A stretch of DNA of 11,487 nt from a virus. Its lineage: Duplodnaviria; Heunggongvirae; Uroviricota; Caudoviricetes. Location of the stretch: positions 1 to 11,487 of the IMG/VR virus record IMGVR_UViG_2563367000_000012; one strand, given 5' to 3'. Position numbers: made by a program. Shown piece after piece: positions 1-3,000 of this stretch (its first letter is position 1; each line of letters begins with the position of its first letter).

Positions 1-3000
1 GATGTTGCTGCGCTCGATGCAAAATACTCGAGGGAATTAGCCGATGCGAGAGCTGAAAATGAAACTCTTCGCGCTGACGTTGCCGCTGGTCGTAAGCGCC
101 TGCGGATCAACGCCACCTGTCCAGGCTCCGTGCGTGAAGCCCCCACCACCTCCGGCGTGGATAATGCAACCGGCCCCCAACTGGCAGACACCGTTACACG
201 GGATTATTTCACCCTCAGAGAGCGGCTGATGACGATGCACAAGCAACTGGAAGGGGCACAGGACTATATCCGCACTCAGTGCCTGAAATAAGTTTTGTTG
301 ATGCGCCGTATCGTCGCTATATTCCCTCATTAACAGAGACCGCAGCCCGACAGGGAGACTCCTCTGCGCGAGTGTGCGGGGATAATTAAAAACGATGCAC
401 ACCGGGTTTTTACCGCGTTAATGATTCGCGGGTTTATCCCGGTGCGATGGTGGAAGAAACAGGAAGCTGTATTACAGAAAGTGCTACTACTGTATCCCGA
501 TGCGATGTATGTAATGTGAGTCAGATAATGGCACAGGATGTGGTGATGTGGCAGTCTGGAACACAGGATATATTGTCAGAATAAGACCCGTAGGAATAAA
601 AATGAAAAGACGCCTTTTACTACTTTTTCTGTTATCTGTCCTGGCAGTGGGATGCTCGCAGCAAAAAGCTGATGAGCCCCGGCAATTAGTGACGGTGTAT
701 CCACGATATCCGGAATATGCTGCAGCAAATTATATCAAGGGGCTGGTTGAGGTTAAGTTCGATATTGGTGCTGATGGGACTGTGACACGGATCGTTTTTC
801 TCCGCTCAGAGCCTCATAATTTGTTTCGTGATGAAGTGGTGAAGGCCATGGCGAAATGGCGATTTGAAAAGAATCGCCCCTGTCAGGGAGTGAAGAGACA
901 ATTTATCTTTACGCCGTCACGTCCTTGATGCTTCCAGGTAGAGAGGGGCTGGACGCAGGAGAAAAATGAAAGAGCCAGCGGTTATATTTTTGTCATGGCT
1001 GACGAGGAATGATGGAAGAAGGCGTTGTATGCCACACAACGCCTCACTGTTCATTTCTTCTTTTTCTCTGGTGGAACCCGATGAATAAGAGTTGCACTGG
1101 TTTCCGATGAGATGGCGATATACTCGGGCAAAGTATGCTGGCAGTTTTCCAACTGGTCAAAAATACCTGCTCTCGTCTGTTGCAATGCCTGCAGCATGCG
1201 GCGGCAATGCGCCTTGCTTTTACTAACCATCTTTCCTTCCTCTATCAGTCGCTGCGTGAACTCATCATGTAATACCAGGTAAATGCGGATGTTATCGGTT
1301 TTGGCTACGCAGCATAGTACAAAACGGACAGGTGCATCCCGGGACGGGGGAGGCGTCACATGTCCCTGTGATGGTTGTTCCGGGTAATGCACTGTGTGGG
1401 GCATAAAAATGTCCGATAATTTTACTTTCTACCGCAGTTAGTTGATTCGTTGGTCCTGGTAGCACATTGGGCGAGGATTTAAATGCCAGGCAACTGAAGG
1501 ATGATGTTGCAAGGGAGATAGCGAGAATATTTCTGATTTTCATTTGATGATGCCTCTGTGTGAAATGACGGTAAACGACGCACTTGTGCCGGCACATAAT
1601 AGCAAGCACCATAATAGATCAGATTCGATTCTTGCTGTAAGTGATAATTATTCTCGTTTTCGGGTCCTTTCCGTCGATCCAACAGGTTACGGGGCGGCGA
1701 CCTCGCGGGTTTTCGCTATTTATGAAAATTTTTAGGGAAAAATCAGATCCGTTTTTCTTCTTTTTAACTGATTGATTATCAATAGAATTTTAAAAATATA
1801 AAAGGATCTAACAAAGGCTGTTTTTGTTAGAAAACGCCATTTTCAGATCCTTTCTGGTTCCCGGGGGAGTGTATGAACGTCAATAAGAAAAAACTGGCCG
1901 ATATTTTTGGCGTTGATGTCAGGACCATCACCGCCTGGCAGAGTCAGGGGTTACCACTAGTTTCTGGTGGAGGGAAAGGGACTGAATCAGTTTTTGATAC
2001 AACTGCTGCCATTCAGTGGTATGCGCAGAGGGAAGCTGATATTAAAAACGAAAAACTCCGTAAAGAGATCGAGGATTTGAGGGCTGCCAGCGAATCAGAC
2101 CTTCAGCCCGGCACCATTGATTACGAACGTTACCGACTGACGAAGGCACAGGCCGATGCACAGGAGCTGAAAAATGCTCGTGAGGAAGGCCTTGTCCTCG
2201 AGACGGAGTTATTTACCTACATCTTTCAGCGAGTGGCACAGAATATATCAGGGATCCTTGTCCGTGTCCCTCAGACACTGCAGCGTAAATACCCTGATAT
2301 ATCACCCGTACATCTTGATGCTGTGAAAACTGAAATCGCGAAAGCATCCGATGTGGCTTCTGAAGCCGGTGAGAATGTGCGCAGGTGGATTGATGATTTC
2401 AGACGAACTGAGGGCGGCTAATTCTGCAGGAGCGATAGCAACCGGCCTCCTTGCGCTAAAAATTCCTGTCCCTCTGACGACAGTTCAGTGGGCAGATCGA
2501 CATTATTACCTTCCGAAAGAGTCATCTTACACCCCGGGGCGGTGGGAAACACTGCCGTTTCAGGTTGCCATCATGAACAGCATGGGGAATGACCGGATCC
2601 GCACTGTTAATCTGATTAAATCTGCCCGTGTTGGTTATACAAAGATGTTGCTGGGAGTGGAGGCTTATTTTATTGAGCATAAATCACGCAACAGCCTTCT
2701 TTTCCAGCCCACGGATTCTGCTGCTGAAGATTTTATGAAATCTCATGTGGAACCCACGATCAGGGATGTGCCGGTTTTACTCGATCTTGCACCGTGGTTT
2801 GGGCGTAAACATCGTGATAATACCCTCACGCTGAAACGTTTTTCATCGGGCGTGGGCTTCTGGTGCCTGGGCGGGGCTGCCGCTAAAAACTACCGTGAAA
2901 AATCCGTGGACGTGGTCTGCTATGACGAACTTTCCTCGTTCGAACCGGATGTCGAAAAAGAGGGTTCGCCAACCCTGCTTGGGGATAAACGTATTGAGGG

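Follow-up and report, generated by a model that had tools for sequence, protein, structure and literature searches.

The C-terminal domain (CTD) of TonB binds transporters of the outer membrane at their TonB box by strand addition beside its strand beta3 (PMC11658791, PMC9249621). Iron import that depends on TonB is inhibited when the periplasmic domain of TonB is over-produced in the periplasm (Howard 2001, as related in PMC9841981), and a TonB-box pentapeptide reduces both TonB-dependent colicin killing and phi80 infection (Tuckman & Osburne 1992, as related in the same source). Small phage outer-membrane lipoproteins that act periplasmically on a TonB-dependent transporter are represented by Cor (phi80, N15, HK022) and Llp (T5), the latter being allosteric, confined to FhuA and able to block also the TonB-independent T5. 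Lipoproteins of the Bor/Iss type, the known role of Bor being serum resistance, constitute morons of the slot between Rz and cos in lambda and phage 21. Finally, in FusB and other specialised paralogues of TonB the TonB_C domain has diverged for specialised partners (7zc8, 9hi3). Here we examine a 108-amino-acid TonB-CTD lipoprotein encoded at positions 602..928 (plus strand, stop codon included) of an 11,487-nucleotide stretch of caudoviral DNA (IMG/VR record IMGVR_UViG_2563367000_000012, positions 1 to 11,487; hereafter the window), which corresponds to the late region of a lambdoid prophage. Our analyses show that this gene, rather than being a fragment of tonB, encodes a member of a lipoprotein family of Enterobacterales on which purifying selection acts, and we propose, tentatively, that its product may act as a decoy for TonB boxes.

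The assignment of the protein to the TonB_C-domain family is supported by both sequence and fold criteria. The Pfam model PF03544 (TonB_C) was matched at E=7.3e-13 (49.2 bits vs a cutoff of 24.6) and TIGR01352 at 47.4 bits (cutoff 27.1), while a phmmer search of the PDB retrieved E. coli TonB (1u07) at E=1.4e-14, with residues 24-103 of the query aligned without gaps on TonB 151-230 at an identity of about 40%. An AlphaFold2 (AF2) model obtained with six close sequences was too weak (predicted local distance difference test score, pLDDT, of 60), and prediction was repeated with a 36-sequence family alignment, reaching a pLDDT of 86.9, with block means of 53-54 for residues 1-20, 82 for residues 21-30 and at least 96 for residues 31-100. 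When this model was compared with the PDB using Foldseek, it superposed on 2grx_C (TonB bound to FhuA) with a root-mean-square deviation (rmsd) of 0.9 Å and on 2gsk_B (TonB bound to BtuB) with an rmsd of 1.0 Å, both with a template modelling (TM) score of 0.92; the top matches were all TonB CTDs (rmsd 0.9-1.3 Å, probability 1.00), and the structural neighbours of the model were all TonB or TolA CTDs. The order of elements is that of the TonB CTD, a short N-terminal helix carrying the YP motif being followed by two beta strands, a helix and an edge strand (beta3). The resemblance to the TonB CTD claimed in the initial annotation was thereby borne out.

In comparison with the E. coli TonB CTD (residues ~150-239; 1U07, 1XX3, 2GRX, 2GSK), the predicted fold is the same and the receptor-bound conformation is matched, including the edge strand beta3 (residues 94-103). 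Also shared are the YP motif (Y36-P37, equivalent to TonB Y163-P164), the glycines and the aromatic core, in which F53, F75, W86, F88 and F103 occupy the positions of TonB F180, F202, W213, Y215 and F230, respectively. Cys18, the first residue of the mature protein, is equivalent to TonB 145, and its C-terminus, at the equivalent of TonB 235, comes four residues earlier than in TonB, so that the protein spans the portion of TonB seen ordered in receptor complexes (the 2grx_C chain has 78 residues). Unlike TonB, it carries a lipoprotein signal and a 7-residue tether (SQQKADE) in place of the membrane anchor and the proline-rich spacer, and would consequently have no connection to ExbB/ExbD. The lack of both elements, already pointed out before this analysis, is visible directly and is reflected in the failure of full-length TonB equivalog models (NCBIfam PRK10819), which scored 45-69 bits against cutoffs of 265-448. 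With anchor and spacer both absent, the sequence indicates that the protein is not a TonB energy transducer, in which it also differs from the FusB-type paralogues, which keep the membrane anchor and transduce energy.

The coding sequence, identical to phage 21 CPT_21_73 and to RefSeq WP_000830178.1, starts with an ATG at 602 and closes with a stop codon ending at 928, preceded at 6 nt by a ribosome-binding site (RBS), AGGA (592..595, plus strand), which was read directly and is marked at the same place in the curated phage 21 record (locus record L001, 3991-3994). Its N-terminus, MKRRLLLLFLLSVLAVG followed by CSQQ, displays a positive n-region (MKRR), a hydrophobic core and a lipobox. The signal peptide (residues 1-17) and lipobox A15-V16-G17-C18 are encoded at 602..655 (plus strand), Cys18 (653-655) being the predicted lipidated first residue, with Ser19 at +2. 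The short tether (residues 19-25; 656..676, plus strand), which would connect the lipid anchor to the folded domain, is poorly conserved and extends over pLDDT blocks averaging 53-54 (up to residue 20) and 82 (residues 21-30), and is followed by the TonB CTD fold (residues 26-105, equivalent to TonB 153-232; 677..916, plus strand), delimited by Pfam, TIGRFAM, PDB alignment, AF2 and Foldseek. The extent of the open reading frame (ORF), its own RBS and the AVGC lipobox with Ser at +2 had all been described in the initial annotation, and each was recovered here; the lipobox Cys is moreover invariant among the 29 non-redundant family members, none of which has Asp at +2. According to the +2 rule of lipoprotein sorting, a lipoprotein with Ser rather than Asp at this position is predicted to reside in the outer membrane, facing the periplasm, and we infer this localisation for the 108-residue protein.

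Neither the gene nor its domain is new to databases. CPT_21_73 of phage 21, 100% identical to the protein studied here, is annotated as "TonB C-terminal domain protein", and identical genes occur in phages ev017, Perceval, PhiR47_2, PhiR57_1 and PhiR63_2; a clade at 72% identity includes Stx1a phages, JLK-2012 and Lys8385Vzw, and a relative at 41% was found in a Klebsiella phage. Among 5426 complete E. coli genomes, 1617 (about 30%) carry the gene, always annotated as "TonB family protein"; 1202 of these carriers have it at an identity of at least 99%, and 392, including O157:H7, belong to a 60-80% clade. An exhaustive profile search across thousands of TonB_C proteins delineated a set of 104-133-residue proteins matched from end to end, most of them with lipoboxes, which originated from Rahnella, Salmonella, Pantoea and Erwinia in a follow-up search and from Raoultella and Shimwellia in a genome scan. 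Conserved positions among the 29 members (P34, Y36, P37, A40, G47, V49, D54, G59 and P71, together with F75, V79, A82, W86, R87, E89 and P93) largely correspond to the TonB core, while Y39 (TonB R166), S69 (A196), D76 (E203) and K90 (P217) are conserved specifically in the family. Between the two E. coli phage clades (that of phage 21 and the one at 72% identity), the ratio of nonsynonymous to synonymous substitution rates (dN/dS) was 0.12 at a dS of about 1.5, a value that indicates strong purifying selection on the TonB-CTD lipoprotein. In strain LZHX12, whose 4.62-Mb genome is of K-12-like size, we observed solely an unannotated remnant (query bases 196-310 at 75% identity), which suggests a decay of the gene in one or more cryptic prophages.

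The position of the gene in prophages is also conserved. In the window, the lysis cassette ends directly 5' of it with a complete Rz/Rz1 pair, formed by the 3' part of Rz (the i-spanin gene; 1..291, plus strand; phrog_13 at 5.8e-46, labelled 'lysis protein' in RefSeq) and the embedded o-spanin gene Rz1 (44-229, plus strand; phrog_3198 at 1.3e-29). Downstream lie the region from cosQ to the cos nicking site (1662..1691, plus strand), located approximately by aligning the window with the terminal part of phage 21 (cosQ annotated at L001 5061-5067), and the terminase small subunit gene nu1 (1873..2421, plus strand), which constitutes the downstream border of the cargo slot, so that the placement between lysis genes and cos originally proposed proved correct. 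The cargo segment (292-1872) is low in GC (45-47%, vs 53-57% for Rz, terL and portal), the TonB-CTD lipoprotein gene itself having 46.8%, and positions 302-1691 align at 98.7% with phage 21 at its right genome end (L001 3701-5090), up to the cohesive end. The parallel that had been drawn with the bor site of lambda holds in part: bor shares this slot in phage 21, where it lies between Rz and the TonB-CTD lipoprotein gene, on the opposite strand and with no sequence relationship to it, but bor and its upstream region are missing from the window (292-301, vs L001 3196-3700 in phage 21). IMG/VR contains many examples of both layouts, Rz being found at about -810 where bor is present and at about -314 where it is missing.

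Prophage members of the family from E. coli, Klebsiella (41% identity) and Rahnella (32% identity) are found directly past the lysis cassette, on the late strand and before the terminase genes, a common slot that had gone unrecognised. The genomic context of the best 80 of 176 IMG/VR loci was consistent with this arrangement: in 75 of the 80, a same-strand Rz is located upstream at a distance of 314-2069 bp, and of the five exceptions three have no upstream sequence. The terminase found downstream in these loci varies in identity between 29% and 100% or belongs to another type; since it varies while Rz stays, the TonB-CTD gene moves among mosaic phages together with the end of the lysis module. 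Expression data are available from the literature for LF82_160, an identical copy labelled "TonB fragment" in prophage Perceval of the adherent-invasive E. coli (AIEC) strain LF82, which was identified as a moron transcribed 8-fold above the prophage background in LB, the adjoining lysis and terminase genes not being among the listed morons (PMC9928086). With its inter-module slot, low GC and lysogen transcription of an identical copy, the gene behaves as a prophage moron, in agreement with the character first attributed to it.

Regarding its function, we propose the following mechanism. After Sec export, lipidation of Cys18 and Lol sorting (Ser at +2), the protein would be held at the outer membrane's inner leaflet by a tether of about 7 residues and, unlinked to ExbB/ExbD, would be unable to pull. 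Beside the transporters, it would compete with TonB for the TonB boxes of receptors and of entering group B colicins, and the outcome would be a dampened TonB-dependent entry of T1/phi80-type phages, group B colicins, microcins and albomycin, at the expected cost of a reduced siderophore and vitamin B12 uptake. Group B colicins bear TonB boxes of their own (PMC11658791), and a receptor-adjacent decoy could therefore trap colicins too. A direct functional precedent is provided by engineered TonB fragments, in which the periplasmic or C-terminal domain of TonB is likewise exported without its anchor (as related in PMC9841981). Like Cor and Llp, the TonB-CTD lipoprotein would be a small phage lipoprotein of the outer membrane with TonB-dependent receptors as periplasmic-side targets, but its fold is unrelated to theirs, and the model found no match in BFVD at E<=1e-3, where many Llp-like matches are reported in the Llp preprint. 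It also differs from the engineered TonB fragments in being natural, diverged and lipid-anchored, the fragments of Howard and co-workers reportedly being soluble, over-expressed laboratory constructs of TonB itself. In contrast to Llp, a TonB-box decoy would be receptor-general, competitive and limited to TonB-dependent entry. We consider this mechanism possible, at a level slightly short of an even balance. With more reserve, we regard it as conceivable that in phage 21- and Stx-type prophages, harboured by about 1/3 of E. coli, such a decoy, a single protein of 10 kDa, confers a receptor-independent tolerance to TonB-dependent phages, colicins and microcins unlike that of Cor/Llp, and that the chromosomal lipoproteins of Pantoea, Salmonella and Klebsiella/Raoultella are natural uptake brakes. 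The hypothesis of a decoy at the level of function appears to be unpublished: our full-text literature search retrieved no functional study of this protein, and a 2024 review of superinfection exclusion mentions no such mechanism.

Several observations weigh against a TonB-box decoy. Residues R158, Q160 and R166 of E. coli TonB, which reportedly make specific TonB-box contacts in the 2GRX and 2GSK complexes, are replaced here by T31, Y33 and Y39 and are not kept in the family, and beta3 is the least conserved strand of the domain among family members. These unconserved contacts and the variable beta3 fit equally well a pairing through the backbone only and a different partner, which the family-specific Y39, S69, D76 and K90 could mark. 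Because the virulence of extraintestinal pathogenic E. coli (ExPEC) relies on TonB-dependent siderophore uptake and the carriers include UTI89, ATCC 25922 and LF82, a strong constitutive block seems unlikely, and any block in lysogens would have to be partial or conditional. Transporters greatly outnumber TonB, which is limiting (PMC9841981), and for this reason a TonB-box decoy needs many copies and high expression. Our scan of the sequence upstream of the gene found no plus-strand sigma-70 consensus promoter, the best candidates identified manually having 8-9 of 12 matching positions, one of them overlapping the start codon. Nor was a Fur box found there, the best matches having 8 mismatches in 19 positions, equal to the window background level. 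The gene is co-oriented with the late operon and may for that reason act also, or mainly, in lytic growth. Moreover, the family has chromosomal members outside prophages, namely in Raoultella beside lacZ/lacI, in Salmonella Choleraesuis, in Pantoea and at a bcs cellulose locus; no TonB-dependent transporter genes were located near the chromosomal homologues examined, and the existence of these homologues suggests a host envelope role. Finally, our literature searches retrieved no experiment on this protein, and the decoy is plausible by analogy with the TonB fragments and peptide described above.

Two alternative scenarios propose another ligand. In one, the TonB-CTD fold would have been recruited into a small lipoprotein of the outer membrane for an envelope task that has nothing to do with TonB blocking, such as binding of peptidoglycan or of another envelope protein, stabilisation of the lysogen envelope or assistance to late phage release; this scenario appears on balance improbable, albeit deserving serious consideration. 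It would account for the chromosomal non-phage members in several genera, for the conservation of Y39, S69, D76 and K90 while beta3 varies and for a prophage gene always placed directly past the lysis cassette on the late strand, and it has a parallel in the ability of TonB-family CTDs to take other ligands, e.g. ferredoxin in the case of FusB (9hi3). The gene neighbourhood, however, points to no such partner, genuine TonB CTDs in the receptor-bound conformation are what the protein most resembles in both sequence and structure, and expression in the lysogen argues against a purely lytic role. We judge it quite unlikely that the lipoprotein serves instead as a sink for TonB, pairing with the CTD of host TonB (or with the periplasmic domain of ExbD) and parking it at the outer membrane; this would produce the phenotypes expected of a decoy with far fewer copies and no receptor binding. 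The retention of the aromatic residues F202, W213, Y215 (as F) and F230, which according to Postle-lab cysteine cross-linking reportedly mediate contacts between TonB CTDs in vivo, would favour such a pairing, as would the crystallisation of TonB CTD fragments as dimers (1u07, 1ihr) and the scarcity of TonB relative to transporters (PMC9841981). Yet the physiological relevance of CTD dimers is disputed, the same aromatics pack the core and would be conserved anyway, and the last four residues missing from the protein belong to the inter-subunit strand in 1u07.

The two remaining readings derive from existing annotations and are both highly improbable. The label 'Rz-like spanin' of phrog_1267, matched at E=5e-43, together with the encoding of a lipoprotein beside Rz/Rz1, could suggest a spanin or another lysis component, but a complete Rz/Rz1 pair, matched by separate PHROG families, is present just upstream, the protein has a globular TonB_C domain instead of a short proline-rich Rz1 and, having no C-terminal transmembrane helix, does not qualify as a unimolecular spanin either, and the curated annotation of phage 21 keeps CPT_21_73 apart from the spanins. 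We consequently regard a spanin function as effectively refuted and the PHROG label as wrong; it looks like a positional mis-annotation, which PHROG-based pipelines may propagate. Similarly, several records bear the labels 'partial', 'truncated' or 'TonB fragment', as would be appropriate for a decaying and functionless piece of a captured host tonB. Such an origin is contradicted by the possession of a start codon, an RBS and a lipoprotein signal of its own, by an identity to E. coli TonB of only about 40%, by the conservation of full-length copies across genera and by transcription in the lysogen, and the low dN/dS and the family data refute it. A search with the defence-system models of PADLOC-DB gave no match at E<=0.01.

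The sequences flanking the gene provide limited indications about its regulation. Iron regulation was rejected given the lack of a Fur box above background. The claim of a downstream hairpin with a T-run was only partially upheld: an 8-bp GC-rich hairpin (stem GGCGTTGT/ACAACGCC; 1021..1043, no strand assigned), detected by folding between the TonB-CTD gene and a convergent minus-strand ORF, does have a T-rich tail, but it begins 93 nt past the stop codon, the tail lies about 10 nt past the stem rather than adjacent to it, and a terminator scan called neither this hairpin nor any other intrinsic terminator; it is possible that it works as a weak or bidirectional terminator. Searches for structured RNA around the gene found no credible Rfam match, and the upstream fold had a z-score of -1.3. 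A putative upstream gene for 45 residues (447..584, plus strand), annotated as the hypothetical CPT_21_72 in phage 21 and with no PHROG or PADLOC match, is possibly co-transcribed with the TonB-CTD lipoprotein gene. The non-coding stretch at 304-475 is about 90% identical between phage 21-type and Stx-type sequences (L008 3677-3862), while the DNA of the gene is only 75% identical, and an inverted repeat, CACCGGG...CCCGGTG (about 402-445), is found within this conserved stretch; either the gene was swapped by recombination in conserved flanks or the stretch 304-475 holds a conserved regulatory element.

A number of associations were noted in the neighbourhood of homologues. The chromosomal member P0183 (108 residues; L015 2208-5327) has a phage-integrase fragment at a distance of 260 bp and, at about 1.7 kb, a 360-residue protein with a pore-forming colicin domain (PF01024), with a 137-residue unannotated protein as a further neighbour; the proximity of a TonB-CTD lipoprotein to a bacteriocin gene is suggestive but limited to a single case. 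A gene for a DUF1440 (YagU-like) membrane protein adjoins the chromosomal Raoultella homologue, and in Klebsiella phage ST13-OXA48phi12.4 another precedes the homologue by about 3 kb on its upstream side (L004 6738-7301 and L007 1277-1903), which may represent a coincidence or the trace of a common origin. Phage 21 (sitABCD at L017 21967-25416) and every further phage record in which the identical gene occurs carry sitABCD, encoding a TonB-independent Fe/Mn importer, sitA being present in 7 of 7 phage records with the 21-type gene, and Perceval additionally expresses the NmpC porin. The combination of sitABCD with the TonB-CTD gene, and with NmpC in Perceval, looks like a cargo package for envelope and metal-uptake functions. 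A functional coupling with sitABCD was nevertheless rejected, given the many sit-positive phages without the gene and the Stx-type clade without sit, and the association looks like a lineage linkage.

As for the remainder of the window, nu1 is followed in order by terL, W, portal, the protease/scaffold gene and D. Between the TonB-CTD gene and cos, two small conserved ORFs overlap on opposite strands, one encoding 59 residues (1051-1230, minus strand; phrog_4843 at E=4e-47, hypothetical in RefSeq) and one encoding 45 residues (1135-1272, plus strand; phrog_3744 at E=1e-31, annotated in phage 21), and it is likely that a real gene exists on at most one strand of 1051-1272. In the region 7980-11487, just past the head-decoration gene, the prophage is split by ISEc10, an insertion sequence of the IS21 family (8163-10414; istA 8163-9662, istB 9659-10414), which sits where intact relatives have the major capsid gene; beyond it follow an AT-rich stretch and afaA (10934-11239), the regulator of the Afa/Dr adhesin operon. 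The prophage in the window is defective. No complete E. coli genome in our collection had at least 80% of 7000-11487 covered in one place, on which account the junction of prophage, ISEc10 and afa is unusual.

If the decoy mechanism is true, a prophage gene common in uropathogenic E. coli (UPEC), AIEC, enterohaemorrhagic E. coli (EHEC) and phage 21 would modulate the main gateway through which siderophores, vitamin B12, group B colicins, microcins, Trojan-horse antibiotics of the albomycin type and many phages enter. This would bear on host range in phage therapy and bacteriocin competition in the gut, as well as on siderophore-antibiotic conjugates (cefiderocol-type) and on how pathogens balance protection against iron acquisition; the product would also constitute a natural, minimal and membrane-targeted TonB inhibitor. 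Whatever its mode of action, labels such as "TonB fragment", "partial TonB", "Rz-like spanin" and "energy transducer TonB" are misleading and need correction; and even if the decoy mechanism proves false, the family still constitutes an uncharacterised use of the TonB-CTD fold in the envelopes of Enterobacterales.

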